Shown here piece by piece: positions 1,016 through 64,000 of a DNA stretch of 64,000 nucleotides. The notes under the pieces are model-generated. The model worked only from the letters and a program-made list of their open reading frames with translations. It made no database searches and was not told the origin of the DNA. This DNA comes from a virus. The stretch lies in IMG/VR virus record IMGVR_UViG_3300027749_000089, positions 10,799 to 74,798 of that record; one strand, written 5' to 3'. Within the stretch, counting starts at the first letter, position 1. Each line of letters opens with the position of its first letter. Made by a program: the position numbers and the translations under genes.

Positions 1016-1225
1016 ATGAAAGTCGAAATTCAAAAAAAGTACAAAACGCGATGTGGCTTCAAAACTGAAGTACATCAAATCATCACATCAGTTAAGACCG
1101 ATTATCCAGTGTTAGGGCGTTATTATGACACCGATTATGCAGAATGGATTGATGAAAGATGGATGTTAGATGGGCGATGCGATGAAAGTATTGTAGATAA
1201 TGATTTAGATTTAGTTGCGCAATAA
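1016..1225 (+). CDS. small phage protein, EVG.xY.TR.G repeat family
   Basis: MKVEIQKKYKTRCG...YPVLG...W.LDG...DLDLV. Confidence 0.7.
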   Translation: MKVEIQKKYKTRCGFKTEVHQIITSVKTDYPVLGRYYDTDYAEWIDERWMLDGRCDESIVDNDLDLVAQ

Positions 1226-1241
1226 GGGATATCTTATATGA
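1217..1241 (+). promoter_or_regulatory. motif class II copy (putative phage promoter)
   Basis: GCGCAATAAGGGATATCTTATATGA aligns without gaps to copies at 55254 and 55792. Confidence 0.4.
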
Positions 1242-1471
1242 AATCGTTAACAAACCAAGAGGTTAAGAACATGTTACACAAATTTGATTTAATATCTGCT
1301 ATTATTGGAATGATGATAGCAATAGCTGTATCGGTAGTGGTAGTTGATATGAAGTACGAAGACTATCGTCAAGTCCACCAAACTAATATTGGTGGTGTTG
1401 TAATTGAAGGCAAGCACATTTATGAGCTTGTTGAATTAAGTGATCCAAGCCAAGGGGTAGTAAGAAAATGA
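1238..1471 (+). CDS. hypothetical membrane protein
   Basis: Hydrophobic segment LISAIIGMMIAIAVSVVVV. Confidence 0.6.
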   Translation: MKSLTNQEVKNMLHKFDLISAIIGMMIAIAVSVVVVDMKYEDYRQVHQTNIGGVVIEGKHIYELVELSDPSQGVVRK

Positions 1472-1859: not shown

Positions 1860-1877
1860 CCCCGTTAAATTAACCCT
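1860..1877 (+). promoter_or_regulatory. motif class I (CCCCGTTAAATTAACCCT), putative phage RNAP promoter
   Basis: Exact 17-18 nt repeat found 7 times, always at gene boundaries and in the same orientation. Confidence 0.65.
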
Positions 1878-1999: not shown

Positions 2000-2614
2000 A
2001 TGTCAGTTCAAATCCAACAAGCATTCGTAGTAAACGGTCAAACATTTGCAACTAAAGCAGAAGCATTAAACTTTGTTAGACGTCCATTGATTTTAGCAGC
2101 TATGTTAACAGCTGTAAGTAATCAAACAGACGTTGCAGAATGGTTAGTTGATAACCAAGACACAGTTGAATCTGCTTTCGAAAGTGGTACTATTCGTCGT
2201 GTGACTAAATCTGATTATAACAAATTGGAAAAAGCACTTGCAGAAATCACTTCAGGTTTCTTATTTGACAATGCAAAATCTGTCTTAGATTCGTTCAGAT
2301 GGCCTGCTGTAAAACGTTTAACTGCTGAAGAAAAAGTAGAAGCCGCTAAAACAGAAATCTTACAAGCATCAGGTAATCCTGAACTTGCTGATTATGTTGT
2401 TAGTAACTCTACTGCTATCTTGGAAGCTTATAGCGCTGGTGTTGAAAAACGCGAAGTGTCACCTAAAGCTGCTGCTGGTTTAGCAGAATACCAAGCTAAG
2501 AAACGTGCTGAAGAAGATGCAGAAGCTGAGTCTAAAGGCCCAGAAGCTGTAGCTGAATTGGCTGCAAAACGTGAAGCTAATCGTTTAAAACGTGAAGCAA
2601 AAGCTGGTAAGTAA
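2000..2614 (+). CDS. hypothetical protein, probably highly expressed
   Basis: AAGGA RBS, biased codon use (GCT/CGT/GAA), class I motif upstream and terminator downstream. Confidence 0.8.
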   Translation: MSVQIQQAFVVNGQTFATKAEALNFVRRPLILAAMLTAVSNQTDVAEWLVDNQDTVESAFESGTIRRVTKSDYNKLEKALAEITSGFLFDNAKSVLDSFRWPAVKRLTAEEKVEAAKTEILQASGNPELADYVVSNSTAILEAYSAGVEKREVSPKAAAGLAEYQAKKRAEEDAEAESKGPEAVAELAAKREANRLKREAKAGK

Positions 2615-6163: not shown

Positions 6164-6181
6164 CCCCGTTAAATTAACCCT
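6164..6181 (+). promoter_or_regulatory. motif class I copy
   Basis: CCCCGTTAAATTAACCCT about 90 nt before terS. Confidence 0.65.
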
Positions 6182-21320: not shown

Positions 21321-22904
21321 ATGACATACGGCCCTACTAAGACAGTTGCGGATCCTTGTCAAGCGTATGAGTATCTTAAACCTTCGTGGAATAAGGCACG
21401 TGCTGTATGCAATGGGGAACGTACTGTAAAAGAGCTGGATCAGTATATTGATCTAATTAGATTTAGCAATTTGCTGATACCCTTCTCTACAACAATGAGC
21501 CAAGCTCAATATGACTTTTATAAGTCAGAAGCTGAATTACCAGGCATTACTGCACAATTTGCTAAGATGCTTGTTGGGGGTTTATTAAGAAAAGCTCCTA
21601 TATTAACATTACCGGATGAAGTTCCTGAAGAAGCTAAGGATTGGCTTATCAATAATATCGGACGTGATGACTCTACACTAGTAGCATTTCTTGATGAATT
21701 ATTGTGGGAAGAGATCAATACATCCCGTGCATGGGTATTTGTAGACCACCCATCCGTTAATAATGTTGAAAACTTAGATAAAGAAACTAGAGATATGATT
21801 AAACCATATCCTATTTTGCAAAAAGCTGAAACAATTGTTAACTGGGCAACAGCTGTAGATATATTTGGTAAAACAGTTTTAAAATATGTAATTGTTAAAG
21901 GTTACTCAGACGATTATACTATTAATGAATTCCATGCTATGAGAGTCCCTACGGTCTGGGTACATGAATTAAACGAAGAAGGTAATTACCAAATTCGTAA
22001 GTTCATGGGCACAACTAAAGACAATGGCGATCAAACTCTTAAAATAGGAGGTATTGGTGAGAAAGCTCAGCAATTACTACCTTCAGGCCATTTCGAGTTA
22101 ATAGAAACATTTGACAATATACTTAATAGCGGGGAACCACTAAGGCATATTCCTGCATGGCCTGTTAATGGTAGTATAGAACCTATTATGCCATTATTAA
22201 TGCCTATCGTAGATAAAGAGATTAGCCTATATAATAAAATTAGTAGACGAAATCATTTACTATACGGTGCAGCTACTTATACACCTGTTATTATGTCAGA
22301 TATGCCTGATGAACAATTTGATGAAATTGTAGACGCTGGATTAGGGTCTTGGATAAGATTACGCCAAGATGATAAAGCAGATGTCTTAAAAACACCCACA
22401 GACGCATTACAAGACATGCAAAAAGCTATTGAAGCATCTATCGATGAAATGGCTAAACTTGGCATTAGAATGCTTACAACTGAAAATGAACAATCAGGTA
22501 TTGCATTAGAAATTCGTAATGCTGCTCAAACGGCACAATTAAGTGTGTTGAGTACAAAAATCTCCAGTACATTAAAGCAAGTAATATGCTTAATGGTTAA
22601 TTGGAGATATGGATTAAAAATTAATGCATGTGATATTGTGTTTAATTTATCCGCAGATTTTGATCCAGTGCCTTTAGGTGCTGAGTGGTTGAATCTTGTT
22701 ACTCAATGGTATCAATCAGGGTTATTACCTAGAACTGTGTGGCTGCAGATGCTAAAGGCAAATGATATTCTTAATTCTGAATATGATGATGAAGCCGCAT
22801 TACAAGAAGTAAACGCAGATCCTCAGATCATACCTGCAGCAACTAAATATAATGATCAGTATGCAATGCAAACATCATCACAACAAGGAGTTAATAATGG
22901 CTAA
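21321..22904 (+). CDS. portal protein (DUF4055-like)
   Basis: 527 aa, GLLRKAP, WVFVDHP, ETIVNW, IPAWPV, PLLMPI motifs; precedes MuF head gene. Confidence 0.8.
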   Translation: MTYGPTKTVADPCQAYEYLKPSWNKARAVCNGERTVKELDQYIDLIRFSNLLIPFSTTMSQAQYDFYKSEAELPGITAQFAKMLVGGLLRKAPILTLPDEVPEEAKDWLINNIGRDDSTLVAFLDELLWEEINTSRAWVFVDHPSVNNVENLDKETRDMIKPYPILQKAETIVNWATAVDIFGKTVLKYVIVKGYSDDYTINEFHAMRVPTVWVHELNEEGNYQIRKFMGTTKDNGDQTLKIGGIGEKAQQLLPSGHFELIETFDNILNSGEPLRHIPAWPVNGSIEPIMPLLMPIVDKEISLYNKISRRNHLLYGAATYTPVIMSDMPDEQFDEIVDAGLGSWIRLRQDDKADVLKTPTDALQDMQKAIEASIDEMAKLGIRMLTTENEQSGIALEIRNAAQTAQLSVLSTKISSTLKQVICLMVNWRYGLKINACDIVFNLSADFDPVPLGAEWLNLVTQWYQSGLLPRTVWLQMLKANDILNSEYDDEAALQEVNADPQIIPAATKYNDQYAMQTSSQQGVNNG

Positions 22905-23218: not shown

Positions 23219-26200
23219 ATGATTATTAATAGTAATACACAAATTTATGACAAAACGCTAGATCGCGCAGCGATGATCCGTCTATATGAGAGAAGAGTCT
23301 CTGGTAAAGTTGATTTAGTAATTGATGGTCATGTTGTTAGACTAGATAAATTAATTAAAGATGCAGAATTATCAGGACGAGGTTTCGAAAAATTTAGAGA
23401 AGCTATTGACCAAGAATTAAGAAAGACATATAAATCAATTAATAATTCTGTTCAAAAAGATCTATCATCTCTTGTATCTGATCAACTCTCATATGCTTAT
23501 CAAAAAGTAGAAGTGGCAATGGGTAAAATATGGCGTACTGAAAGACCTAAGAATAGAATCTCTGAAGAAATTGTACTTAAAAACCCATTAAGTGAAAACG
23601 GTACAATGGAGCAGGGATGGTCAGGTATTGCCAAGAATGAAAAAATTAGATTAGAAGCAGTTATACGCAAAGGTATAGCTGACGGAAAAAGCGTAGATGA
23701 AATAGCTCTACAAATACGTTCAGGAAACGTACATAATATAACTCGCATGCAGTCGAAAGGTCTGGTAATAACAGCCATTACAGCTGTATCCTCTCAGGCT
23801 GATCATGCTATTTATAAAGCAAATGAAAAAGCGTTACAAGGATGGCAATATGTTGCTGTCCTTGACGCACGAACAACTCCGCTATGTGCTCATAGAGATG
23901 GTGAAATTTATCCGATAAGCGATACAATACATCTTCCACCGGCACACTGGCATTGCAGATCTACTACAGTTCCTGTATTTAAATCATGGAGCGATATAGC
24001 AGATCTGGAAAGTGTAGCACAAGTAAGACGTAGGAATATTGAGAACTTAACTGATGCTCAAAAAGCTTTTTATGACGGTAACACACCTCTTAGAGAGTCA
24101 TACAACGATTGGCTAAAGCGGCAACCACAAGATGTACAATTAAGGCATCTTGGTGATTATAAAAAAGTTAACATGTTTCAATCAGGACAACTTACTGTTG
24201 ATCAATTTACTAACCCAGAAGGTAACACTATTGGAATTAAAGAATTGAGACGTATGACTGATCCTACATATACACTTCCTAATGATACACAGAAATTTGC
24301 TAATGCAAAAGCTAAATTAGATGCGATGCAATTACCTATTATGACACCAGATGATTTAATAGGAGATCCTAAATTAATTCAAACATTAAAAGATTATTAT
24401 TTATTACAGGCAGGTGAATTAGATGGTACCTTATCTCTTACCAATTATCGAGGCGCACTTATCCATACAAAGAAAGCTGCCAAGACAAGAGTGCTTAACA
24501 GTCTTCCAACGGAGGACCAACTCATCTTTAACCCCGTTACCGGTAGGTACGAAGATACAAGATTATATCAACCTAATCCATCCGTACTCAATAATAACTT
24601 AAGACTTGCAAAACAAAGTGATGTTTTGAAACCAAAAGATAAAGAGTTTATTAATTCATTTAATACTGCGCTTAGTGAAAAGATGAGTGTTAATGAGCGT
24701 GCCGTTGTGGTAGATAACCTTCGTATTCTATTTACCAGATTTAGAAATAATGGTGAACAGTGGAATAACTTTAAAGCTGTGGTACAGGGTCAAATTAAAT
24801 TTGATGTAATGAATGTTTCTGATGCTATTGAAACTCAGATACGTAGTGATATCAACGTATTGAAGAAACTCAAACAAGATAATTATATTGATCCAGTATT
24901 AGGTCCAACTCAATTACAAGACTTGCATGATAATTTCATTGATAATATTCGTGCTAAGAATAACTGGGAAGATACTATATCTCCTAAGATAGCTAGAGAG
25001 TTACGTAATACATTTGATTACAAGATACCCTTAGTATTAAAAAGAATGCCTAATGGTAAAGAGCGTTTAACTGAATCTGCATTACAACAATTTTATCTAA
25101 AGTTTGCGCACAGATTAAGCATGGCAGATATGCCTGATAGAGATCAATTTGCTATTGCATTAGGAAGAGATTTATACAATCTTGCTAATATGAACGGCAC
25201 TAGACGTAAATGGTACGAAACAGGTATGAAGCTTCTTGAAGCTAAAAATGTTAGTAACTTCTTTGAAGTTGAAACATATGGTGTTCAAAAGCGAAGAATG
25301 AAAAGTAGACTTAGTGGTTCCTTGTTTGGCCCTTATTATGACACTCTGTCATATAATATAAGAGTTGTAGACCCTCGAATACAAGAATATTCACAGCTCA
25401 CACGGAAAGTGGACGTTGGCCTACGTGTTGGCGTAACAACAGAAAAGAACAAACTGGTTTTTCGCGAGGGATATAAAACTTATTTTATTGACAGAGGTCT
25501 CCTAGGTTTAGAAGATACAAGAATACCTATTACGTCAACAAATAGTTTTTCAGATTTTCCTGAAGAACTTGTTGATAAAAATATGGCAGATGCGTTAAAT
25601 TGGGCATCTAAGTCTAAGTATAAAATTGATAATGACTTTTACGACTTTACACAAAAATTATTATACTTTGAAGATGATCGAGGTAACGCTAAAAAGTATA
25701 ATGATCTAAATGAATACAAACACTATATTTCATCTCGTGGTGATGCATATGAACGATTTAAATCTATGGATTGGCTTAGAAATAATGATTACGCTTTCAG
25801 TAATCATGCTTTTGTCGATCATCGGGCTAGGATCTATGATCGTGGCCTTATTAGTCCGCAATCGGGAGAATCATTTAGACCTTTCTTAAATACTGAAGTA
25901 GAAAAAGTTCTTGGCGAAGATGGATATAGAAACTTCAGAGATCAGATAGGTGCCTTTATGGGTGGTCTAAATGATGTATTTGAAGGTAGATATAATTCAT
26001 TGTCATTTACTGGACGCCAAAAGATTGCTGATAAATTGTGGCCAGATATGGTAGACCTTGGTAATAAAATGTTAAGAGCCAAACCTGCAGATTTACGTGC
26101 TATTCTGGAATCAGATACGGTGCAATTAATTGAAGGTGAGGAACTTGGTAAGTTCATGAGATTTGCCATGGAAGCTGCTAAGATAGATAATCATCTTAAA

Positions 26201-27856
26201 GCCGGTGGCTCTATGAATGCATACAAAACAGCCTTAGCCTTGGAACAAGATGCATCGTCTTCAGGTGCTCAGATTATTGCATTAACTACAAAGAATAAGC
26301 AATTAGCTTCATTATCTAATGTTATACCAACAAATCAGAAACGCAGACTATATGATGAAATTGCTGCTGCAACATTTAATGATCCTCGGTTTAAGGTGCT
26401 TAACGAAAGATTATGCCTCAATGAAAAAGATTTACGTAAAGCTGCAAAAGCTCAAAATATGGTTACGTTTTATGGTGCTGGTGAGAGAACGGGAATTTTA
26501 AATGTAGAAGGAAAGTTAGCTAAAGTACTTGGGAAGGACTCTTCTACACTAGTAGTAAAAGCTAGTGATCGTGATAAAGTATTAAATGAAATTTCAGCTC
26601 GTGCGGCTAGATATGAAAAGTTTGATCCAGAGACAACTGCAGAGCTTAAACAGCTTAGAGAAAACGTTAAAGATATATTTAACAAAGGCTTAGATCCTGG
26701 TGATGACATTATGGAACAGTTATATTTCCTGGATCCTGCTACTAAAGACTTAGTAGAAAAAATGACACACACCTATGATATGGTGGTTACACCTAAAGAC
26801 TTCCAAGCTATTGCTAAATTAATGTCTGAACATTTAGGTGAGCAGGTTCCTATTCTTAAAGATTTTACTAAATTCTTTGGTAGACTAGCTGAAGATTATT
26901 TAACTAATGCTAAGCCTTCACAAGCTGCATTAGATTGGAGATCTATAGGCGCTACTAGTATATTAGGTGCCCGTAAAAAAGGTTATGTATTACCTGATAG
27001 AGTTAGTGAAATATTAGGATTGAAGCCTGGAGAAGCTTTGTCTGAAAAGTTTTTAAAGAGATTTGATGGTTGGAAACCTGACGGAACCTTGGCTGATCTT
27101 ATTTATGGTGTAAAAGGCCCAAAAGATCGTAGAACTGGATTTAAAGTATTTAAAGTAGAGCCTATAGAAAAATTAAATATCTCTAAAGGTTTTGAAATAT
27201 TTTATGCTAATAAGCTGCCCAAGTCTTGGACTAATGTCCCATGGGTTAATTTTGATGGAAAAGTTATTGAGCAAAACTTTACCCAGTCATTTGAAGAAAG
27301 ATTAGTCTATAAAGACAAAGATGGTAATTGGGTTAATAATTTGGTTCAGGTGCAGCAGAAAACAGAAGCCACTTGGTGGGAACAGGTAGTTAATGCAGAC
27401 GGTAAAATAAATGACATTGCAGACGCAACTAAAGCACGAACAGCATATGCAGTTAACGGCAATCACTCAAATGATGCCACGTTGGTTAAGAATTTCCATA
27501 TCTGGGGACGAGACAATAAGATTGCCACAAGCACCATTCACGATGCGTTTTTCGCCAATGCAGCCGATATGCTGGAGGCCCGGAAGGGTATAAGAAAACT
27601 ATATGCTAACGTACTAGATAAGAACCCTGTCAAGGTTACTTTAGATGAAATGTTAGCTAGAGGTTTTCCAAAAGAATTATATGATAAATATTTAGAAGAA
27701 GCTATTGACAAAGGATTAATTCCAGTTGCTGGTAAATCAGTTGTCGGTGGTAAAACATTAACAGAAGCTGACATCTTAACAAAGAAAGATGTAATGAGCG
27801 ATATCCCCGATCCTACTAAATTTGAGGATGATTGGGGTTTTTACGGCATAGGCTGA
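23219..27856 (+). CDS. MuF/SPP1 gp7-like head morphogenesis domain fused to T7-like single-subunit RNA polymerase
   Basis: N-terminal YVAVLDARTTPLC...PPAHWHCRST (Phage_Mu_F); C-terminal DHRARIY, SPQSGE, motif A QDASSSGAQ, motif B RKAAKAQNMVTFYG, NHSNDA, motif C IHDAF. Confidence 0.9.
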   Translation: MIINSNTQIYDKTLDRAAMIRLYERRVSGKVDLVIDGHVVRLDKLIKDAELSGRGFEKFREAIDQELRKTYKSINNSVQKDLSSLVSDQLSYAYQKVEVAMGKIWRTERPKNRISEEIVLKNPLSENGTMEQGWSGIAKNEKIRLEAVIRKGIADGKSVDEIALQIRSGNVHNITRMQSKGLVITAITAVSSQADHAIYKANEKALQGWQYVAVLDARTTPLCAHRDGEIYPISDTIHLPPAHWHCRSTTVPVFKSWSDIADLESVAQVRRRNIENLTDAQKAFYDGNTPLRESYNDWLKRQPQDVQLRHLGDYKKVNMFQSGQLTVDQFTNPEGNTIGIKELRRMTDPTYTLPNDTQKFANAKAKLDAMQLPIMTPDDLIGDPKLIQTLKDYYLLQAGELDGTLSLTNYRGALIHTKKAAKTRVLNSLPTEDQLIFNPVTGRYEDTRLYQPNPSVLNNNLRLAKQSDVLKPKDKEFINSFNTALSEKMSVNERAVVVDNLRILFTRFRNNGEQWNNFKAVVQGQIKFDVMNVSDAIETQIRSDINVLKKLKQDNYIDPVLGPTQLQDLHDNFIDNIRAKNNWEDTISPKIARELRNTFDYKIPLVLKRMPNGKERLTESALQQFYLKFAHRLSMADMPDRDQFAIALGRDLYNLANMNGTRRKWYETGMKLLEAKNVSNFFEVETYGVQKRRMKSRLSGSLFGPYYDTLSYNIRVVDPRIQEYSQLTRKVDVGLRVGVTTEKNKLVFREGYKTYFIDRGLLGLEDTRIPITSTNSFSDFPEELVDKNMADALNWASKSKYKIDNDFYDFTQKLLYFEDDRGNAKKYNDLNEYKHYISSRGDAYERFKSMDWLRNNDYAFSNHAFVDHRARIYDRGLISPQSGESFRPFLNTEVEKVLGEDGYRNFRDQIGAFMGGLNDVFEGRYNSLSFTGRQKIADKLWPDMVDLGNKMLRAKPADLRAILESDTVQLIEGEELGKFMRFAMEAAKIDNHLKAGGSMNAYKTALALEQDASSSGAQIIALTTKNKQLASLSNVIPTNQKRRLYDEIAAATFNDPRFKVLNERLCLNEKDLRKAAKAQNMVTFYGAGERTGILNVEGKLAKVLGKDSSTLVVKASDRDKVLNEISARAARYEKFDPETTAELKQLRENVKDIFNKGLDPGDDIMEQLYFLDPATKDLVEKMTHTYDMVVTPKDFQAIAKLMSEHLGEQVPILKDFTKFFGRLAEDYLTNAKPSQAALDWRSIGATSILGARKKGYVLPDRVSEILGLKPGEALSEKFLKRFDGWKPDGTLADLIYGVKGPKDRRTGFKVFKVEPIEKLNISKGFEIFYANKLPKSWTNVPWVNFDGKVIEQNFTQSFEERLVYKDKDGNWVNNLVQVQQKTEATWWEQVVNADGKINDIADATKARTAYAVNGNHSNDATLVKNFHIWGRDNKIATSTIHDAFFANAADMLEARKGIRKLYANVLDKNPVKVTLDEMLARGFPKELYDKYLEEAIDKGLIPVAGKSVVGGKTLTEADILTKKDVMSDIPDPTKFEDDWGFYGIG

Positions 27857-28212: not shown

Positions 28213-28216
28213 CCCT
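28199..28216 (+). promoter_or_regulatory. motif class I copy
   Basis: CCCCGTTAAATTAACCCT overlapping the DUF2829 stop codon. Confidence 0.65.
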
Positions 28217-28312
28217 TAAGCGGTCCCCCCTTTAATGAGTCTATTAGTTAATTAGTCCTTTATTTATTCTTTAATAAAATAATAATAAATAAATATATTA
28301 ATGATTAATAGA

Positions 28313-28330
28313 CCCCGTTAAATTAACCCT
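28313..28330 (+). promoter_or_regulatory. motif class I copy
   Basis: CCCCGTTAAATTAACCCT about 80 nt before scaffold/capsid operon. Confidence 0.65.
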
Positions 28331-54487: not shown

Positions 54488-54514
54488 GGCCCTGACTTCG
54501 GTTGGGGTCTTTTT
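54488..54514 (+). terminator. TTCG-loop terminator
   Basis: GGCCCTGAC-TTCG-GTTGGGGTC then TTTTT. Confidence 0.65.
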
Positions 54515-54979: not shown

Positions 54980-55200
54980 GTGATGCCAAAATTTTCCGCG
55001 TCAAGACGGGGCATTTCTGCACAAATTTTGGGTAGCGTGAAATCTGGGCGTGTGTGGGCACGCGGTGTGGGCGCATCACTGAGGGATCAGCGTGGCACCC
55101 GCGTGCCGTGTGGGGCAATTTCTGGCGGCAGAACGGGCACTCTCAGCGTGTGGCGTGTGGCAGTTTTCAGCACCGAACCCGTTAAATTAACCCTTCAGAC
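54980..55200. other. GC-rich non-coding island with GTGTGG repeats and an inverted repeat
   Basis: Five GTGTGG copies; GGCACGCGG (55057-55065) pairs with CCGCGTGCC (55099-55107). Confidence 0.6.
55178..55194 (+). promoter_or_regulatory. motif class I copy
   Basis: CCCGTTAAATTAACCCT, plus a partial AATTAACCCT at 55211-55220. Confidence 0.6.
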
Positions 55201-55253
55201 GTTCCCCCTCAATTAACCCTTTGGTCATTATCCATTAATTGTTAATTCCTAAT

Positions 55254-55278
55254 ACGGAAATAATGGTATCTTATATGA
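55254..55278 (+). promoter_or_regulatory. motif class II copy
   Basis: ACGGAAATAATGGTATCTTATATGA. Confidence 0.5.
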
Positions 55279-55454
55279 TAATCAATATAGATTATTATAA
55301 CCAAGGAGTATACTATGAAACATAATAAAGTAACACCTATCCAACAATTGGCATTAATTAATAATAAAAATGTTCCTTTTCCTTTCCGTAAAAAGAAAGA
55401 GAAAAATACGGAAGCTTTTGATACCTTTCTTAAGGCAGCATTGAAGGAGCAAAA

Positions 55455-55757
55455 ATGAAAAGTACAGTATTATTTTTGATTAACGCAAACTTAGATTGTG
55501 ATATTAGACGTCATGTCCCATGGGATTATGAAGATGTCGATGCGGAAGATTACAACGCTGTAATCCAAATGTGGGATACAGCCAGCACAAGAATTAGAAT
55601 TGGTGACAATCTGCAGTATACGTGGGATAGCCTCACGTGGGTTGGGCGGGATGTAGACTGTCTAGCTGCAATTTTAGATAGATTAAATGAAGAAGATTTT
55701 AAATTGTGTGTCCTCACAGAAGGGCATATCTACCAGCAAGGGTTGCTGGTACTTTAA
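55455..55757 (+). CDS. hypothetical protein
   Basis: AAGGAG RBS. Confidence 0.65.
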   Translation: MKSTVLFLINANLDCDIRRHVPWDYEDVDAEDYNAVIQMWDTASTRIRIGDNLQYTWDSLTWVGRDVDCLAAILDRLNEEDFKLCVLTEGHIYQQGLLVL

Positions 55758-55760
55758 CAT

Positions 55761-55787
55761 AGGGATGGTCTTCGGACTATCCCTTTT
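55761..55787 (+). terminator. TTCG-loop terminator
   Basis: AGGGATGGTC-TTCG-GACTATCCCT-TTT. Confidence 0.7.
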
Positions 55788-55791
55788 AAAC

Positions 55792-55816
55792 GCGGAAAAA
55801 GAGGTATCTTATATGA
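55792..55816 (+). promoter_or_regulatory. motif class II copy
   Basis: GCGGAAAAAGAGGTATCTTATATGA immediately after terminator. Confidence 0.5.
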
Positions 55817-55867
55817 AGTACAATAAGGTACCTCAACTAACTTTAATATTCCAAAAGGAAACTAACA

Positions 55868-56034
55868 TGTTTAACGAAATTATAAACTATTTTACAGCTG
55901 ACAGAAAAGTAATTGATGAAGCTAGAGATTTATTAGTGGAATTAAGAGCTGAACAAGAAGCTGCTGATGCTTTAATGGCAAAACTTGAAGCAAGAGTTTT
56001 AGTAATGAAAACAATCAATTGCAAACAATCGTAG
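55868..56034 (+). CDS. small coiled-coil protein
   Basis: AAGGA RBS before MFNEII; likely true start of the listed 55687 ORF. Confidence 0.55.
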
Positions 56035-56263
56035 TAGACTTAACATTAATCAGTAATTCAAGTAAAGTATATGAAGTACATCACAATTTAATTAATCCAA
56101 GAGGAATTTCAAATGAACGCAGTAGAACACGCGCAACAAATAGTAGATTTAAAATTAGCAGAAATGCAAAAAGAACACGAAGCAAGAATTGCTGAATTGA
56201 ACAAAGAATTTAATATTGAAGAGCGCTTAGCAGCTCTCCTTAACATTCCAAGAGGAAACTAAA

Positions 56264-56509
56264 ATGCCAACTATGTATTTTGATGTAAACAATTTTGAAA
56301 CTGAATTTAACAATGCAAAAGATCCATCTTTCTGGAGTGATTTCTTTGATGATATTGGTAATTCATTTAATTACTATGCAGATATGATTACACCTGAATT
56401 CTTTAAAAAGCCATGGACTCAAGCTGATGTAGATGCTTACAATGCAGCATTAATGTGGTTCTTGATTGGCTACTACGTTGCTTTATTCATAATATTAATG
56501 ATATTATGA
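56264..56509 (+). CDS. membrane protein with C-terminal TM
   Basis: GAGGA RBS; hydrophobic C-terminus. Confidence 0.65.
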   Translation: MPTMYFDVNNFETEFNNAKDPSFWSDFFDDIGNSFNYYADMITPEFFKKPWTQADVDAYNAALMWFLIGYYVALFIILMIL

Positions 56510-56994
56510 TAAATCTAAATAAAGAGTTTGAAAAAGATCAAGTTAAACACGAACAAAAGCGTAAGGAAGAACATACGGAAGAATACTTGCTTCTTGAGGA
56601 GTTGTATGATACTATTGCCTATGTATTTGGGCGAAAGTATACAATGATTCCTCAGCGCAATGGAATGTATAGATTGAAACTTGTAAAAGATATCGATCAA
56701 TTTAAAAAAGGTTCTCTAGGCGGGTTGGTTTCTAATGAGGATAATGTTTCGCATAGTGGTAATTGCTGGGTTACATTTGATGCTAAAGTTCTTGACGATG
56801 CAAAGATTAAAGATAATGTTCTAATTACAGATAAAGCAGTTGTTAGGCAACAATCACTAATAACAGATAATGTTATGGTTGGTGGCCAAATGGCGGTCGC
56901 AGGTAATACCTACCTTGGCGGTGAAGGTATATATTGCGCTAGTGAGATTCTTTTTAACTTTTGCGAGATTGTTGAAAATGAAAATTCAAATTGA
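56506..56994 (+). CDS. phage hexapeptide-repeat (LpxA-like) protein
   Basis: YRLK..KD....KG.LGG....E.N.S..GNCWV..DAKV...A.I. Confidence 0.7.
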   Translation: MINLNKEFEKDQVKHEQKRKEEHTEEYLLLEELYDTIAYVFGRKYTMIPQRNGMYRLKLVKDIDQFKKGSLGGLVSNEDNVSHSGNCWVTFDAKVLDDAKIKDNVLITDKAVVRQQSLITDNVMVGGQMAVAGNTYLGGEGIYCASEILFNFCEIVENENSN

Positions 56995-57268
56995 AGCGTT
57001 ATACGTGTTAAATGAAAAAGCTTATTATGCAAAAACAGAGTCTAATCATTTAACAATAGATCCGACATTATATGTAAGAACGGTAAAAGTTCATGAGCTA
57101 CATGAATTAGCAGTAATGGAAACTTCAGTCTATTCTGAAGATTTTATCGATATGCAAGAATATGTACCAATAGCTTGTCTTAATGGGTCTCTCATCCCCT
57201 TTTTAATAGAAAAAGAAAAATCAAAAACTCTACAACGACTAATAGTTGAGCATAAAAGAAATAATTAG
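56978..57268 (+). CDS. hypothetical protein
   Basis: ORF ending before hairpins. Confidence 0.5.
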   Translation: MKIQIEALYVLNEKAYYAKTESNHLTIDPTLYVRTVKVHELHELAVMETSVYSEDFIDMQEYVPIACLNGSLIPFLIEKEKSKTLQRLIVEHKRNN

Positions 57269-57345
57269 TGCTTCGGCACTAGTATTGTAGGTACTCCCCT
57301 CTATCACCCTTCGGGGTGGTGGAGGGTTAACCTCTTTATTTTTTT
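57266..57345 (+). terminator. double TTCG hairpin / terminator upstream of RNAP2
   Basis: TAGTGC-TTCG-GCACTA and CCCTCTATCACCC-TTCG-GGGTGGTGGAGGG then T tract. Confidence 0.65.
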
Positions 57346-57476
57346 CTTCTAAATGAATAAATTATTATTACAATACGTAATTATTTTAGGCTCTACTAGT
57401 TTAATATTTGGTGTAAGTGCGGGAAATTCTTTTCTCTCATTTATTTTATTTCTATATTTGGTAAAAATTAAATGAC

Positions 57477-59696
57477 ATGCGAAATAGATTAAAGCAATCT
57501 TTAACACGTAGAATGCAGTTAGAAATTGCACCACAAAGTCCACTCAAATTTTTAAAAGAAATAGATGTAGAAAATATATTAGATATAATAATATCTAACG
57601 TATACTTATACACTCGTCCAAAGAGAGGTGCTATAAATAAACAAATACTAATGGTTGAAGTGATCAGTATTATTGGGCATTCGGTAAGACGCGGCTTAAA
57701 GAAAGACTCTTCTATTGCAGCTAAGACCGGTGCATTCATATTATATTCATTTGAAGAACTTGGAATGCTTAGGGCAATACTTGGTTCTGCTGGAAATGGA
57801 CATGCAACATATGTTGTAGAAGTTTTAGATGATGCAACAATACAATTACTATGGGAAGGTGTAAGCAGAGAAGGTGCCAAAGGTAAATTACCTTCAATAA
57901 CACCATATGAACCTTATACAGAGTTCAAACACCCTACTGGACAAGTATTAGTCAAGACGGGTAATAAAGATGTTCCAACAAAATTAACACCTGCAACACA
58001 TCCTATAGTATTTGATTCAGTAAATAAAAGCTTAAATACGGGTTGGCAAATAAACAAAGAAGTTTATAATGTTTCTAAATGGGCATTGAATAACCATACT
58101 GATGCATTTAGTGATATATGGGAGCAGCAAAATCCTCAAGCTAAGACTACTAAATTAAGGGAAACAAAAGCTATTCTATCTATAGCAGATAAGTTCATGG
58201 ATACTGTATTTTACCATATGTATTACCTTGATTTCCGTGGAAGGAAATATCCAACAACGGCATATCTCCATGAACAATCTAGTGATATTGCTAAAGGTCT
58301 TTTAATGCGTCAAGATAAGAAAGTAATTGGCGAAGAAGGTTTCTTTTGGCTATGTGTATCTATCTCCAGTAACTGGGCAGGTTCATCAGGACGTGAAGAT
58401 GGTGCAAAGACAGATAAGATTAATCTCAAAGACCGATATCAATGGGTATTAGATAACCAAGAGATCTTATTATCATATGCAGAAAGTCCAAAAGTAAATC
58501 AAGGATGGATGTCAGGAGATAAGCCATGGCAATTCTTAAGTGCATGTATTGAATTAAGAAATGCTTTAAAATTGGGACCAAGATATTTAGAGTATGAGTC
58601 ACATGTTGAATGTTTTATTGACGGATCAACGAACGGCTCACAACATTTATCTGCATTAACAAGAGATGAAATAACAGCTCCATATGTTAATTTAATTCCA
58701 TTAGAACTTCCAGGTGATTTATATGCATATGTTGCCGAACATGTATGGAATAAAATATCTAATGACATAGCAAGAATGCCAGCGGATTTAATCTTTCAAT
58801 GTGAAGATTTTATAGATGGCTTAATTAAATTAAAGAAAAAGATTACTGCATCCGAACCTAAGTCTGAAATTAGGAATCAACTAGTAGCTCAAATTAAAGC
58901 CTATAAACAACAATGGGCGGATATTGGCTCTGTTGCAGCACCTGTATTTTGGAATCGTATAAAAGATTTGAAACAAAGAAGGAAGATAGTTAAAAGAAAC
59001 ACTATGACTCTTCCCTATGGAGGTAGCAGTTATGGATTGGGAGAGCAACAAATCCTTGATGCAAAAAAGCATGGAATAGACTTGCTACTTCATATGGAGC
59101 ATAAATGGGGAGCTTGGCTGGGCAGATTAGTATTTGAAGATTGTAAAGCTTCATTAGAGAAGCCGATGAGACTGTTAAATATATTTGAGAATGCCGGAAG
59201 AAACTGTGAGAAAATTGAAGAATTTTTATCATGGAATGTTCCAATAGTAAACTTTCCTGTAGTACAAAATTATACAGAAGGTAAAGTTAAAAAGATTTAT
59301 GTACAGTATGGGCCACCAGTTGGGTCACGTAAATCTACAGGTTATTATGAAAACACTTTTCAATTAGCAATATGTTTTATTGAAGATGTGGTTCCTAGTA
59401 AAGGTAAACAGTCTCAAGGAGCAGCACCTAACGTTATTCATAGTTTAGATGCAGCGCACTTAGCACTTACTACACACCGTTGTGATTTTACAATTACAAC
59501 AATTCATGACAGCTATGGTTGTTTATTTGCTGACATGCCAAATCTCTTTAGAATAGTTCGCGAGACATTTGTAGAACTTTATAAAGATAATCCATTGTTT
59601 CCAATAATGGATGATATTGACGGAGATCTTACTTATCTTGAGATGGGTGATCTTGATATTAATTTAATTCTAGAAAGCGAATACGCTTTCGCATAG
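57477..59696 (+). CDS. T7-like single-subunit DNA-directed RNA polymerase (stand-alone, short N-terminus)
   Basis: DFRGRKYP, Q.SDIAKGLL, KPWQFL, motif A DGSTNGSQH, motif B RKIVKRNTMTLPYG, PNVIHSLDA, motif C IHDSYG. Confidence 0.95.
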   Translation: MRNRLKQSLTRRMQLEIAPQSPLKFLKEIDVENILDIIISNVYLYTRPKRGAINKQILMVEVISIIGHSVRRGLKKDSSIAAKTGAFILYSFEELGMLRAILGSAGNGHATYVVEVLDDATIQLLWEGVSREGAKGKLPSITPYEPYTEFKHPTGQVLVKTGNKDVPTKLTPATHPIVFDSVNKSLNTGWQINKEVYNVSKWALNNHTDAFSDIWEQQNPQAKTTKLRETKAILSIADKFMDTVFYHMYYLDFRGRKYPTTAYLHEQSSDIAKGLLMRQDKKVIGEEGFFWLCVSISSNWAGSSGREDGAKTDKINLKDRYQWVLDNQEILLSYAESPKVNQGWMSGDKPWQFLSACIELRNALKLGPRYLEYESHVECFIDGSTNGSQHLSALTRDEITAPYVNLIPLELPGDLYAYVAEHVWNKISNDIARMPADLIFQCEDFIDGLIKLKKKITASEPKSEIRNQLVAQIKAYKQQWADIGSVAAPVFWNRIKDLKQRRKIVKRNTMTLPYGGSSYGLGEQQILDAKKHGIDLLLHMEHKWGAWLGRLVFEDCKASLEKPMRLLNIFENAGRNCEKIEEFLSWNVPIVNFPVVQNYTEGKVKKIYVQYGPPVGSRKSTGYYENTFQLAICFIEDVVPSKGKQSQGAAPNVIHSLDAAHLALTTHRCDFTITTIHDSYGCLFADMPNLFRIVRETFVELYKDNPLFPIMDDIDGDLTYLEMGDLDINLILESEYAFA

Positions 59697-59704
59697 GAGT
59701 TTAT

Positions 59705-59989
59705 ATGACACAGCCACAAAGATTTACAATACATGAATACGCAGAATTGACTGGAACAACACCTAATACTGTCCGTACACATATCGTAAGAAGTCAAGCA
59801 GATCCAGTAGATGCTATACGTAATAGAAACGGTAGCATAACTTATGTTTATAGCGGTATTGATTTAAAGGCATGTATGCACAACTCAAGAAAGAAAGAGA
59901 GAGAAGTCATTGAGATCACAAATCCAATGTGCAAATTTCTTGCTAATCCGATAATGCCTGTTGGCAAATGGTATGGATTTGCGATATGA
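59705..59989 (+). CDS. putative HTH DNA-binding protein
   Basis: FTIHEYAELTGTTPNTVRTHI. Confidence 0.6.
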   Translation: MTQPQRFTIHEYAELTGTTPNTVRTHIVRSQADPVDAIRNRNGSITYVYSGIDLKACMHNSRKKEREVIEITNPMCKFLANPIMPVGKWYGFAI

Positions 59990-60188
59990 GCAACGTAACA
60001 ATGATTAAACGGTCTGATAAGAAGAACCATAATAGAGTATTGAAAATAGCTGAGAATTGTAAAGAAGATTACAAAGCTTTAGAAGATGCTTTAAACGATG
60101 ATTGGTTTCTAACAGATGTAATATGTGTTGTAGGAACACCTGGCTACCACAGTGCAGCCACAGTATTTATTTTGTATAAGGATTAATT

Positions 60189-60503
60189 ATGATGCGTGAT
60201 TTAATTATTGATGAAATCCTTGGTTCAAAATGGTACCAAGATCTTTCACGCAATGAAAAAGATAAGCTTGACGTACAGAGATTGAGTTATAAAGGTCTCT
60301 TGGAAGCTCTTAAAAAATCTTTAGACCCTACTAGTAGGGCTTTTTAGTTAAGGAAAGTTATGCGTGATGAAATGATTGATCAAATTCTGGGTTCAAAATG
60401 GTACCAAGATCTTGCAGACAATAAAAAGTTAGACTTTAACTTATATATATTAAGTCATAAAGATCTCTTGGAAGCTTATAAAAAGTCTTTACCTAATTGT
60501 TAA
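60189..60503 (+). CDS. tandem duplicated small genes (60189-60347, 60360-60503)
   Basis: Both encode MRD..ID.ILGSKWYQDL...LS.K.LLEA.KKSL. Confidence 0.7.
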
Positions 60504-60542
60504 TTTTAAAAGCCTGAGTATGCTTTAACTGCTCAAAACAAA

Positions 60543-60929
60543 ATGGAGGAAAGTATGTTAACATCAATAGGTTGTCTCGTAGCTGTAATGTATTTCGAGG
60601 CAAGAAACCAACCAGTTGATACGATGTTAGGTGTAGGTCAAGTATTGATTGAACACGCACAGCCAGGGGAGAATCTATGTCACGTTATTAAACGCGATCC
60701 GGGTTTATTTACATGGGCACGACATGGTATGAAAACACCTAACCCTAAGCGTAAAGCCGACAGAAATGTGTTGGATAAGCAATATGAATTGGCGCGAAAA
60801 ATGTTATTCAGAAATCTCAGAACTACTAAACTAACAGAAGGCTATACGCATTTTAATAATGTGCCTTTAGGCAAGCGCTTCAGAACAAATGTTAAAATGG
60901 TAAAAATTGGCGATTTATTATTTTTCTAA
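60543..60929 (+). CDS. SleB-like cell wall hydrolase (Hydrolase_2)
   Basis: CL...MYFEARNQ......V..V; C.V......F.W; KIG...F. Confidence 0.75.
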   Translation: MEESMLTSIGCLVAVMYFEARNQPVDTMLGVGQVLIEHAQPGENLCHVIKRDPGLFTWARHGMKTPNPKRKADRNVLDKQYELARKMLFRNLRTTKLTEGYTHFNNVPLGKRFRTNVKMVKIGDLLFF

Positions 60930-61492
60930 GGAGAACCAAATGGATAATATTCTGAGTACGATTAACTATGTTTTAAATTTAGAGATAGACGCATTTGAGG
61001 AATACGTCTGTGACCAGTGGAATGATGAAACATTCACACCACGAAATAAACATATGCTTGATAGAGCATTAATAGATAGTAATATTGATCATATGTATAA
61101 GACAGCTTACTTAGCTGGAGAAGAATATGTTACATTAGTAGCATTTGAGAATAAAGTCAGGAGTCTGACTTTGAATCAACAACAACAATCGGCAATGTGG
61201 AAATAATTATGTTTAAAGATATTTGGCAAGCTATGTTTTCATTAGCAGTAGTAATACCATTATTTGTATTGCTATTCATTCTTTATATTCCTCTTAGAAT
61301 CTTTGGAATTGATATATTAAAAATTATAGAGGTAAAAATAGATGATGTCTTACGGTGATATAGCACTATGGTGCTCATTACTTTTTGTAATGTATAAGAA
61401 TCTTCATTGGTATAAGGTTGCTCGTACACAATCTGAACTAAATGAAAAACTTCAAGATAAGATTGCTGAACTTGAAACGATTATAATTATTC

Positions 61493-61699
61493 ATGGAATC
61501 AAAAATGAGAGTAAGCACTAGAGCTGTAATGATTAGATTAGGTATCAACCAGATGCAACTAGGTATGGCATTGTACTCAGGACGATTACCTAATCATGGA
61601 GCAGATGCCACATGGGATAAAGAATCCATTGAACCATATTTGGTTAATTGGGAAAGACAACTTAAAGCTAAAGAAAGAACAGGTATAAGAAATGATTAG
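61493..61699 (+). CDS. small putative DNA-binding protein
   Basis: STRAVMIRLGI...SGRLP....W. Confidence 0.45.
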   Translation: MESKMRVSTRAVMIRLGINQMQLGMALYSGRLPNHGADATWDKESIEPYLVNWERQLKAKERTGIRND

Positions 61700-61859
61700 T
61701 CAATTATTAGAAGCTGTAAGCTGTAAAGTTTTAGAAAACATGGTAGTAGAGTTATTGCACCAAGGTTGGATGCCACTGGGCGGAGTTGCAGCATGCGCAC
61801 CTCCCGATGTTACTCCACTTTATGTTCAAGCTATGGTACGGGATAATGTTAGTGCTTAA
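61692..61859 (+). CDS. DUF1737-like small protein
   Basis: Manually translated: V.ELL.QGW.PLGGV...Y.QAMV. Confidence 0.55.
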   Translation: MISQLLEAVSCKVLENMVVELLHQGWMPLGGVAACAPPDVTPLYVQAMVRDNVSA

Positions 61860-61991
61860 AGAAGAAGTAATTGAAGTACTTAGCTTACTTAAGCTATTAA
61901 GAGCAATGCTAGGTGAAGGCAAAAGTGGATACGAGGATTCTGTAGCAACAGTTGATCGTTATATTAATTTATTTTCAGAATGGTTAAAAGC

Positions 61992-62390
61992 ATGATTACA
62001 TTTAGACAAAACTCAGACGTACGTAATTTCTTTTATGGAAAAGAAGATCATCCACATTGGGAGCCACTGTGGCAACACTTTTCAAACATCTTAAGAAATA
62101 CACATGATGCTGCAGGTTACATTCATGAATTTGGCGGTGATCTTCATATTCTAGAATCTTTTGGAGATTTCTTGCATGTAACATTTATGGGCATGGATGA
62201 TAATGGTGTATTTAGAGAAACTAATCTTGCGTTAGATCCTGGCTCATTTGATATTGCTCGAAAAATCAAAGATTCTGACTGGTATGAGTTTCATTTCATC
62301 ACTACAAATGCAGGCGGTCCAGTTTGGTTCATTCCAGAAGAGCTTGCTAAAGTAAATGAAAACGTGCAAGAATCAGTAAATATTTCCTAA
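61992..62390 (+). CDS. hypothetical protein
   Basis: ORF; ends before class I motif. Confidence 0.6.
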   Translation: MITFRQNSDVRNFFYGKEDHPHWEPLWQHFSNILRNTHDAAGYIHEFGGDLHILESFGDFLHVTFMGMDDNGVFRETNLALDPGSFDIARKIKDSDWYEFHFITTNAGGPVWFIPEELAKVNENVQESVNIS

Positions 62391-62420
62391 TAAATGTGGG
62401 TCTCTATAAATGCTTAGAGA

Positions 62421-62438
62421 CCCCGTTAAATTAACCCT
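62421..62438 (+). promoter_or_regulatory. motif class I copy before replication genes
   Basis: CCCCGTTAAATTAACCCT, overlapped by hairpin GGGTCTCT...AGAGACCC. Confidence 0.65.
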
Positions 62439-62466
62439 AATTCAAAAATCAAAAGAGAGAACAGCA

Positions 62467-62958
62467 ATGGCAAAGTTATATGACGTAGAAATTTATTTCG
62501 CTAAACTTGGTAAACCAAACGGCAAGTTTAATAAAGAAAATCCTACATGGGAACTCCAAATTCGGACTACCGACAAAGAGAAAAAGAAAGAATGGGAAGC
62601 TATTGGATTGACTGTCAAGCCTATCGTTCCAGATGATGGTGATACATATTTCAGAGCTAATCTGAAAAAGAAGTCTATTAAATCAGACGGTACACCAAAT
62701 GAACCTGTGAAACTGATTGATGGTAAATTAAGACCTATTGATCCCAACACGATTGGAAATGGATCTATCGGTAATATTCGTGTATTTGAATACGAATATA
62801 AAGATCCAATGGGGGTTACAAAGAAAGGCTTTACCCTTATGACAGTACAATTAACAAAGCATATAGTATATACTCCACGTACCAGCGAAGATGATTTCGG
62901 TGAGACAGAATATGAACGTGAATTCAGCAGTAATGAAACTGACGATGACGTATTCTAA
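62467..62958 (+). CDS. ssb: single-stranded DNA-binding protein (T7 gp2.5-like)
   Basis: IGNGS.G.I, VQL.K.I.Y motifs; acidic tail ending in Phe (ETDDDVF). Confidence 0.7.
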   Translation: MAKLYDVEIYFAKLGKPNGKFNKENPTWELQIRTTDKEKKKEWEAIGLTVKPIVPDDGDTYFRANLKKKSIKSDGTPNEPVKLIDGKLRPIDPNTIGNGSIGNIRVFEYEYKDPMGVTKKGFTLMTVQLTKHIVYTPRTSEDDFGETEYEREFSSNETDDDVF

Positions 62959-62962
62959 ATAT

Positions 62963-63661
62963 ATGATAAATTATACATACAAAATACTTAATAAAGATCA
63001 CCAATTTGTAGCTTTTATTAGAGAATGTGAATTAGATAGTATGATTTCTAATTTTAAAGACGGATATTTTATAAAAGCAGAAACAAATAATATGCCACTT
63101 CAAGGAATTTCTTTTATTAGAAATATTGATGAACTTGATGCGTGGTATGCACAGATAGATCGAAGACATTGGAAGAAAGAACGTACAATTTCATTTCTTT
63201 ATGATCTTCAAATAGTATATAAAGCAACTATCAATGAATATTTAACTGAGAATATTCGTGATGTTACTGAGTATAATTTAAATAATGACCATTTAACTGC
63301 AGTAATTAGAGAAAGTAATGGAAACGAAATTGTATTCCATGACGAAGAAGCTTTAGATAATTATCTCATGAATTATCGTAAACCCCAAGAAGTAAATAAT
63401 GCAGTAGACCCTAAGCATTATAAAGGATATGTAGATGAATTACAATGGTTAGACACAATGAGTAGAATACCTACTTTGCGTGATCCAGCGAAATTCGAAG
63501 CAGCAGTTGAATTACAAATAAGAAAATACCTTGACCGTAATGGTCAAAAGGATGATTCTCTACAAGAACTCCAAAAAGCTTTATGGTACTTAAAGTACTT
63601 AATCGCCTATAAAAAGGCCGGCAGACCGATAAAGGTTGGAGAAGTAGAAAGCATCCTATAA
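62963..63661 (+). CDS. DUF3310-domain protein (T7 gp1.7-like nucleotide kinase family) with N-terminal extension
   Basis: AVDPKHY...KYLDR.G.KD...QEL.KA.WYL. Confidence 0.7.
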   Translation: MINYTYKILNKDHQFVAFIRECELDSMISNFKDGYFIKAETNNMPLQGISFIRNIDELDAWYAQIDRRHWKKERTISFLYDLQIVYKATINEYLTENIRDVTEYNLNNDHLTAVIRESNGNEIVFHDEEALDNYLMNYRKPQEVNNAVDPKHYKGYVDELQWLDTMSRIPTLRDPAKFEAAVELQIRKYLDRNGQKDDSLQELQKALWYLKYLIAYKKAGRPIKVGEVESIL

Positions 63662-63668
63662 CAAAATC

Positions 63669-63697
63669 GGCACCTCACTAATACTGGGGTGCCTTTT
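63669..63697 (+). terminator. intrinsic terminator
   Basis: GGCACCTCA...TGGGGTGCC then TTTT. Confidence 0.6.
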
Positions 63698-63712
63698 ATT
63701 TGGAAATTATAT

Positions 63713-64000
63713 ATGAATTATGTATTCGACATTGAAACCGATGGACTATTAAAAGACGTAACACAAATGTGGATCATGGTTGTTCATGATGTAAGTGCTA
63801 ATAAGCGAATGCAATTTTTGCAAGGAGATATGAATTGGATACAACTATTCAATAATGCTAGACAAGTTATGGGTCATAATATTATTGGATATGACTTAGC
63901 TGTATTAAAGAAGCTATTCAACTATGAATTACCTAAGAGCGTAAAAGCTGTAGATACACTTATTCTTTCACAAGTATTAGACTATAGGAGGTTCGGTAAT
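63713..64000 (+). CDS. family A DNA polymerase, N-terminal 3'-5' exonuclease (3'-truncated)
   Basis: FDIETDGLL (ExoI), GHNIIGYDL (ExoII), DTLILS, as in T7 gp5. Confidence 0.85.
   Translation, partial: MNYVFDIETDGLLKDVTQMWIMVVHDVSANKRMQFLQGDMNWIQLFNNARQVMGHNIIGYDLAVLKKLFNYELPKSVKAVDTLILSQVLDYRRFGN

Follow-up and report, generated by a model that had tools for sequence, protein, structure and literature searches.

The genome of a long-tailed (siphovirus-type) freshwater phage encodes two RNA polymerases (RNAPs) of the T7 type, one of them a free enzyme of 739 residues and the other a module fused to a MuF head protein. The window analysed here, the whole stretch of 64,000 nucleotides, spans bases 10799–74798 of a single virus record of 74,798 bp, and positions below are window coordinates unless genome coordinates are named. 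The 739-residue open reading frame (ORF; 57477..59696, + strand) is probably an active, compact, promoter-specific T7-type RNAP that serves as the free (non-virion) enzyme of a two-polymerase programme. The sequence and predicted structure of this enzyme, the integrity and age of its fused partner, and two classes of conserved motif carry this reading.

The free 739-residue RNA polymerase

The ORF is open throughout and matches the Pfam family RNA_pol (PF00940) with an E-value of 9.5e-65 (219.6 bits, cut-off 22) as well as phrog_414, "RNA polymerase", with an E-value of 3e-111. In the HMMER alignment, residues 225–739 correspond to residues 393–883 of T7 RNAP, and every catalytic residue has its counterpart: DFRGR at 252–256 corresponds to D421–R425 of T7 RNAP, D382 of motif A to D537, K506 and Y514 of motif B to K631 and Y639, H655 to H784, and D678 of motif C to D812, with a C-terminal YAFA in the place of FAFA. 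Across an alignment of 42 homologues, with identities down to 24%, the catalytic residues are invariant and D252 is nearly so. An earlier note, made from the letters of the window, had described a separate 739-residue RNAP with complete motifs, lying among small genes and upstream of genes for a single-stranded DNA-binding protein (SSB) and a DNA polymerase. Both descriptions are borne out, the upstream small genes being unannotated and the DNA polymerase belonging to family A.

An AlphaFold2 model of the enzyme, built on the 42-homologue alignment, has a mean predicted local distance difference test (pLDDT) score of 93. When the model was superposed on structures with VIA-align, T7 RNAP ranked top (Z 36–44). 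In the comparison with the T7 RNAP–promoter complex (1cez), 660 residues align with a root mean square deviation of 3.9 Å (Z 36.4), and model residues 1–739 correspond to T7 residues 77–883. T7 residue 77, to which the first residue of the model is aligned, falls within the T7 N-terminal domain. Counterparts are lacking for T7 residues 1–76 and for about 90 more residues before the DxRGR motif. Because model residues 1–739 align to T7 77–883, the enzyme therefore appears to keep part of the N-terminal domain in reduced form. The figure of about 170 residues by which the N-terminal domain had been said to be shorter than that of T7 RNAP holds; the shortening is spread out, however, and does not amount to the loss of the whole promoter-binding domain. 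Where the specificity loop of T7 RNAP aligns, DSSP assigns a β-hairpin at residues 600–640 of the model. The large subunit of N4 RNAPII (6dt7_B) matches model residues 286–739 only, with a Z score of 19.7. From sequence and model together, promoter-specific, DNA-dependent RNA synthesis is predicted for the 739-residue enzyme.

The short N terminus is a trait of a clade. In an all-against-library search, many enzymes of 690–775 residues align with the window enzyme end to end at 28–51% identity, and typical podovirus enzymes of 800–830 residues align with it only from about residue 220 on. T7 RNAP itself (gene 1 of the Autographiviridae; 1cez and 1qln) shares with the window enzyme the fold, the catalytic residues, the single chain, the N-terminal domain, the specificity-loop hairpin, and an FAFA-type end. 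The window enzyme differs in being 144 residues shorter, in belonging to the separate clade of 690–775-residue enzymes with a common N terminus of their own, and in sharing a siphovirus-type genome with a second RNAP that is linked to the capsid.

Contigs from the RNA libraries of one sample cover 57795–59425 of the RNAP ORF at about 98% identity; carry-over of DNA is possible, and assembled contigs show neither starts nor strand. Three further features of these contigs were recorded, from which no conclusion was drawn. The gene for the 2734-residue virion protein (about 46.7–53.3 kb) is for the most part almost without cover in the X22/X23 contigs, the SSB-like gene and the RNAP gene differ about 28-fold in contig depth, and contig breaks near 62440 coincide with a repeated motif.

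In relatives, interruptions of the free RNAP gene fall on the sites of highest conservation, namely ahead of DFRGR (about residue 250), at Y514 of motif B, and at residue 522. The interruptions lie at L018:1876–2106, L014:2547–2765, L010 4693–5446, and L020 near 6760–7550. Two inserts match group I introns in Rfam, with scores of 71.6 and 63.3 bits; group I introns were the only Rfam matches obtained, all of them in relatives. HNH (NUMOD4-HNH) endonuclease ORFs are present in two examined inserts. Many of the RNAP "fragments" of 250–530 residues listed in protein databases probably represent exons from genes split in this way.

The MuF-fused polymerase and the age of the pair

The second enzyme is a 1545-residue MuF head protein fused to a full T7-type RNAP module (23219..27856, + strand; Phage_Mu_F and RNA_pol) and is a candidate virion RNAP. 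Exactly two ORFs in the genome bear an RNA_pol domain, and the single MuF domain of the genome is that of the fusion. Phage_Mu_F is found by Pfam at residues 146–250 (53.8 bits against a cut-off of 29.6), and phrog_241 matches residues 3–362 with an E-value of 2e-62. The fusion gene sits after the portal gene (21321..22904) and before an ORF in the scaffold position. The motifs of the fused module are DHRAR at 867–871, QD1011ASSSG, K1077...Y1085G, H1416, and HD1442; every catalytic motif is kept, and both enzymes of the genome are intact.

A model of fusion residues 380–1545 is of medium confidence (pLDDT 67.7). Model residues 189–1166, which are residues 568–1545 of the protein, superpose on T7 RNAP 38–883 with 516 aligned residues (Z 28.5), and the comparison with N4 mini-vRNAP gives a Z score of 18.7. 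Because the fusion model aligns with T7 RNAP from residue 568 to the end, the cargo would therefore be a complete T7-type polymerase of about 975 residues and not a fragment. By this model alignment, the polymerase module (about residues 568–1545) is encoded at 24920..27853 on the + strand. No sequence match for the MuF-RNAP was found in the PDB. The free and fused RNAPs are only 23–25% identical, in local BLASTP pieces, which agrees with the clear divergence that had been claimed between them.

The MuF-RNAPs of two near-identical relatives carry in-frame inserts, one of 231 residues after residue 1106 (L022:823–1515, − strand) and one of 101 residues after residue 993 (L023:1201–1503, − strand), near motifs B and A, respectively. 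These inserts were considered as inteins and rejected, with no Pfam match and no intein-type termini.

Among phage records, both RNAPs find their best matches in DSS3_VP1 and DSS3_PM1 (Naomviridae). Identity to DSS3_VP1 gp080 is 35% for the free RNAP, and identity to gp108, a protein annotated only as "head morphogenesis", is 28% for the fusion over 97% of its length. In a maximum-likelihood tree of the polymerase core, the four MuF-fused modules form one clade with 100/100 support and a very long stem. In the same tree the free enzyme falls in a clade of short enzymes, and this clade groups with the DSS3_VP1 gp080 clade and the lineage of Pelagibacter phage Kolga (88/80). The two RNAPs are thus not recent duplicates; each groups with its DSS3_VP1 counterpart, and both predate the split of the freshwater clade from the marine Naomviridae. 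A phylogeny of both RNAPs had been proposed in the earlier note; it places them in separate clades, and the MuF-fused enzyme is not an orthologue of the N4 virion RNAP.

The pair is ancient and co-inherited. Both RNAP genes are present in four of four related IMG/VR records, these being all the searchable records with the free RNAP. Metagenomic homologues number more than 400 for the free RNAP and more than 360 for the fusion, and at least 12 "longest contig" lengths are common to both lists. A BLASTP comparison of all ORFs yields 26 pairs common to the window phage and DSS3_VP1 (21–61% identity), in an order that is similar but rearranged. With core genes and gene order shared with DSS3_VP1, both RNAPs included, the window phage can be placed in a Naomviridae-related group. 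In EBPR siphovirus 1 the fusion is 58% identical and is interrupted by an HNH gene; the record of this phage is partial and stops short of the place expected for the free RNAP. Pelagibacter phage Kolga has a free RNAP and an unfused MuF; not every phage with a short RNAP, therefore, carries the fusion. A search of the window genome for the dCTP deaminase and the phosphoesterase of DSS3_VP1 (gp070 and gp041, the latter putatively the Dtm of PMC12697855) gave no homologue (BLASTP, E 1e-4), so nothing in the gene content suggests uracil-DNA in the window phage.

Repeated motifs and the proposed relay

The class I motif, CCCGTTAAATTAACCCT, has seven exact copies on the + strand, where chance predicts 0.13, besides a degenerate one, and the exact copies all stand ahead of operons. 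One copy (1861..1877) precedes the ORF at 2000..2614, two (6009–6025 and 6165–6181) precede the terminase operon, and two (28200–28216 and 28314–28330) precede the scaffold-position and major-head ORFs. A further copy (55178..55194) lies at the boundary between a GC-rich island and the early region, with the degenerate copy at 55204–55220, and the last (62422..62438) precedes the genes for a gp2.5-like SSB, a kinase-like protein, and DNA polymerase. In relatives with RNAPs of 63–98% identity, class I is unchanged at matching positions and the flanks diverge. In L015, the RNAP of which is 58% identical, no class I copy was found within its 12 kb, which contain one similar stretch, GTGAATTAACCTAA; the L015 data are too sparse for a test of covariation between specificity loop and motif.

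A C-rich tail (~AGnCGnTCCCCC) is common to three class I copies (6009–6045, 28200–28236, and 55178–55214), each of which is followed by a second motif copy 26–156 nucleotides downstream, an arrangement that amounts to a duplicated control cassette. DSS3_VP1 (L001/L030) has a seven-copy + strand motif of its own, ATAGGGTGCGTTAAAG, in which CGTTAAA is common with class I. Its copies, at 2333, 19202, 19237, 45926, 46393, 46551, and 59196, precede the portal and SSB-like genes among others, and a related CGTTAAAGAGGGGG set is also present in DSS3_VP1. These repeated motifs are candidate phage-RNAP promoters in a cultured phage.

The class II motif, ~CGGAAAnAnnGGTATCTTATATG, has two exact copies and one variant in the window genome, all on the + strand. 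The copy at 55255..55277, with an exact 13-nucleotide core, lies at the start of the early region, the copy at 55793..55815 directly follows a hairpin and T-run, and the variant at 1218..1240 has one core mismatch and contains the ATG that opens the ORF at 1238..1471. Of 18 related RNAP loci, 17 have one to three exact copies of the core, placed after the class I boundary copy and ahead of the RNAP gene; at the remaining locus too little upstream DNA is available. The motif keeps its place over RNAP identities of 58–98%, with L015 at the lower end, and its surroundings diverge. Both motif classes are conserved. Neither contains hairpins, the single-strand DNA folds having z values of −0.96 to +0.80 against shuffles.

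In the relay that we consider most likely, a few copies of the MuF-RNAP fusion would be packaged at the portal, like MuF/SPP1 gp7 proteins, and would enter the cell with the DNA. The fused enzyme would start at the class II motifs (55255 and 55793) at the beginning of the early region, which holds the 739-residue RNAP gene. The free enzyme would then use the 17–19-nucleotide class I motif, at 62422 for the replication operon and at 1861, 6009/6165, and 28200/28314 for the structural operons, and would transcribe the early region again from 55178. Presumptive in this scheme are the packaging of the fusion and its ejection, the timing of the steps, and the assignment of each enzyme to a motif class. 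The motif layout fits what a cascade would need, with class II at the start of the early region and class I before the replication and structural operons. The two-polymerase cascade of the earlier note, described there as N4-like, is upheld as far as two very different, apparently active RNAPs, the conservation of the pair, and the motif layout are concerned, and the likeness to N4 holds as an analogy only. A wider proposal, which we advance tentatively and rate a little short of probable, is that a large, globally distributed group of long-tailed phages (the freshwater clade and the marine Naomviridae) transcribes its genes wholly without the host polymerase, using two T7-type enzymes of unrelated appearance, a portal-delivered MuF-cargo RNAP on one promoter class and a minimal 740-residue enzyme on a second, the 17–19-nucleotide class that serves replication and structural genes.

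Several observations weigh against the relay. The class I copy at 55178 stands just upstream of the class II copies, and for this reason the motif classes are not cleanly split into "early" and "later" regions. A GC-rich hairpin and T-run, read from the sequence at 57296..57345 (+ strand), precedes the RNAP start codon by about 130 nucleotides, and no class I or class II motif lies between this hairpin and the gene, so expression of the RNAP gene would depend on read-through or on a promoter that went unrecognised. Upstream of the gene, no conserved block is present in an alignment of eight relatives, and hence no dedicated RNAP-gene promoter was found. In most of its copies class II takes in an AG-rich stretch together with the start codon of a small ORF, and it could be a conserved translation-initiation or RNA element instead of a promoter. 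Packaging of the fusion is suggested by two features only, its MuF domain and the position of its gene. The hint as to the host consists of "Flavobacterium sp." labels on two homologues only, and the host promoter type may have been missed.

These points bear on an alternative in the style of T7 or Xp10, in which the host RNAP would transcribe the early region, including the 739-residue RNAP gene, and the free phage RNAP would do the rest; the fused RNAP would then serve in genome pull-in, in priming, or in a late role, or would not be ejected. This is the known scheme for characterised phages with one T7-type RNAP, and Xp10 is a siphovirus that follows such a scheme. Host promoters could have been missed, and class II might act as a promoter for the host polymerase or as a signal for translation. 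We nevertheless regard this alternative as unlikely. The catalytic residues of the fused module are kept across hundreds of homologues and in DSS3_VP1, which argues for a selected, capsid-tied polymerase function. Host-type promoters, moreover, are not in excess: sigma-70-type sites in 53–64 kb number 38 against 49.8 expected, and Bacteroidota-type promoters genome-wide number 2 against 1 expected, although the host promoter type may differ from both. The strict conservation of class II amid diverging surroundings, over the full range of RNAP identities given above, also speaks against host transcription of the early region.

It is more doubtful still that both RNAPs read the same (class I) promoters, with the packaged copy giving a jump-start that the free enzyme amplifies, with no temporal cascade, and with class II being no promoter. 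The class I copy at the head of the early region and the overlap of class II with start codons would agree with such an arrangement, but the low identity of the two enzymes in local pieces and their separate, very long branches make an identical promoter specificity unlikely. A main role of the free RNAP in origin activation or priming for the adjoining replication genes, in place of general transcription, has very little probability in our view. Its gene does lie just upstream of the SSB and DNA polymerase genes, and T7 and mitochondrial RNAPs also prime replication; the genome has its own Toprim-DnaB primase-helicase, however, and class I motifs precede structural operons far from the replication genes.

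The last alternative concerns a 94-residue ORF with a helix-turn-helix (HTH)-like sequence pattern (59705..59989, + strand), immediately downstream of the RNAP gene, which had been put forward as a cofactor candidate. The 739-residue enzyme might need this protein for specificity or activation, as N4 RNAPII needs gp2. The position of the gene, the HTH-like pattern, and weak Atlas leads to HTH_59 and Phage_Cox favor the idea, but those leads are all that was obtained, with no Pfam or PHROG family match. The protein is 73–95% identical where the RNAP is 88–98% identical, and 36% identical in L020; beside RNAPs of 77%, 63%, 58%, and 35% identity (L017, L018, L015, and DSS3_VP1) it is undetectable, and the ORFs downstream of these four RNAPs are unrelated to it. 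The 94-residue protein thus diverges far faster than the RNAP. Because it is detectable only next to closely related RNAPs, it therefore appears to be a poor candidate for an obligatory cofactor, and the RNAP model has a T7-like N-terminal domain and a specificity-loop hairpin of its own. The proposal does not stand on this evidence, and a dependence of the RNAP on the 94-residue protein is highly improbable.

Known systems and genome organization

To our knowledge, virion-delivered RNAPs are known from few phage types only, namely N4-like, crAss-like, and phiKZ-like phages and P23-45. The relay proposed here shares its logic with that of N4 (Schitoviridae; virion RNAP gp50, then RNAPII, gp15/gp16; PMC4496689), with one virion-linked RNAP of the T7 superfamily and a second that is encoded early. 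However, neither window enzyme is an orthologue of its N4 counterpart. The N4 gp50 is a three-domain protein of 3500 residues, whereas the window fusion has 1545 residues and a MuF domain, forms its own clade, and fits T7 RNAP better than N4 mini-vRNAP. N4 RNAPII is a gp15/gp16 heterodimer without a promoter-recognition domain of its own, whereas the free enzyme of the window is one chain. The early promoters of N4 are DNA hairpins, which the window motifs do not form, and the late genes of N4 are left to the host polymerase, whereas those of the window are preceded by a phage-type motif.

DSS3_VP1 and DSS3_PM1 (Naomviridae; PMC8323127) are the closest cultured relatives and have both RNAPs and an analogous repeated + strand motif; they differ in being marine, in having an alphaproteobacterial host, and in their deoxyuridine (dU)-substituted DNA. 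The founding paper of the Naomviridae makes no mention of an RNA polymerase (PMC8323127). The polyvalent proteins anchored by MuF/SPP1 gp7 (Iyer et al. 2017, PMC5512222) likewise join an N-terminal MuF to an enzyme at the C terminus, a cargo presumed to be delivered together with the DNA. The survey of these proteins reports virion RNAP modules only in N4-like phages, fused to other domains, and a description of a MuF-RNAP fusion was not found in it (PMC5512222). Thermus phage P23-45 (bioRxiv 10.1101/2022.12.01.518664) is described as a siphovirus with a virion structural protein fused to an RNAP, which transcribes the pre-early genes and, among them, the gene of a second phage RNAP; the enzymes of this phage are two-barrel (multisubunit-type) RNAPs on the tape measure, not T7-type RNAPs on MuF. 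On that account P23-45 appears to be the closest analogue in logic. In full-text searches, with subscription-only papers outside their scope, neither a MuF-RNAP fusion nor a siphovirus with two single-subunit RNAPs was found to be described.

If the relay is true, a T7-type RNAP carried as cargo of the ubiquitous MuF head protein, together with a second, compact T7-type enzyme, would be a new solution and a common one, given that metagenomic homologues run to hundreds for either enzyme and that both occur together in one cultured phage family. The transcription of uracil-containing DNA by the Naomviridae would be explained as well. A naturally minimal RNAP of about 740 residues, with its predicted promoter specificity and a short candidate promoter, would be of interest as an orthogonal expression tool. 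The relay is directly testable, since DSS3_VP1 and its host Ruegeria pomeroyi are in culture.

The genome is complete (CheckV completeness 100%). The ends of the contig overlap by 155 bp (genome 1–155 and 74644–74798, the latter being window 63846–64000), which reflects either a circular assembly or a short terminal repeat; a 98%-identical relative is labelled "direct terminal repeats" in IMG/VR. Because of this overlap the family-A DNA polymerase gene is split over the junction, its 5′ part lying at 63689..64000 (+ strand) and continuing at genome 24..1736. Nearly all long ORFs are on the + strand, and no tRNA genes were found in the genome. Near-identical DNA is found in freshwater and lake metagenomes, and a megablast of 55000–64000 against phage records gave no match.

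From genome base 1, the gene order starts with the family-A DNA polymerase, a 5′–3′ exonuclease, a GIY-YIG endonuclease, the Toprim-DnaB primase-helicase, the small and large chains of ribonucleotide reductase, and a ligase. Small genes, the large terminase (7118), and tail-fibre genes follow, and then the portal, the MuF-RNAP fusion, the ORF in the scaffold position (28358), and an ORF that matches the major head protein of DSS3_VP1 (29070). Names of structural genes rest on homology to annotated DSS3_VP1 genes, the ORF at 28358 being homologous to gp107. A homologue of the tape-measure protein (3370 residues), the 2734-residue virion protein, and PhoH (53810) come next, and a terminator-like hairpin with a T-run (54488..54509, + strand) closes this long structural/PhoH block. 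Beyond it lie a GC-rich island, small genes, the 739-residue RNAP gene, further small genes, the gene for the T7 gp2.5-like SSB (62467..62958, + strand; weak match to phrog_112, E 4.1e-6, and homologue of DSS3_VP1 gp072), that for the kinase-like protein, and the start of the DNA polymerase gene.

The GC-rich island (54980–55180), in a genome with otherwise 35% GC, contains repeated GTGTGG and is situated between the post-PhoH terminator and the first class I motif of that region; it could mark an end of the genome, a site of packaging, or an origin. Downstream of the RNAP gene, a tandem duplication (60192–60323 and 60360–60491, 79% identical over 132 nucleotides) gives rise to two small paralogous ORFs. 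Two adjoining HNH_3 endonuclease genes (3360–3713 and 3682–4155) are present among the small genes upstream of the terminase, and the phage encodes, besides both chains of ribonucleotide reductase, a kinase-like DUF3310 protein (62891–63661). Within the ORF at 17267–18331, a unit of 41 nucleotides occurs six times (17528–18276) with a spacing of alternately 144 and 138 nucleotides, which points to a repeated module of about 47 residues in a probable tail-fibre protein.

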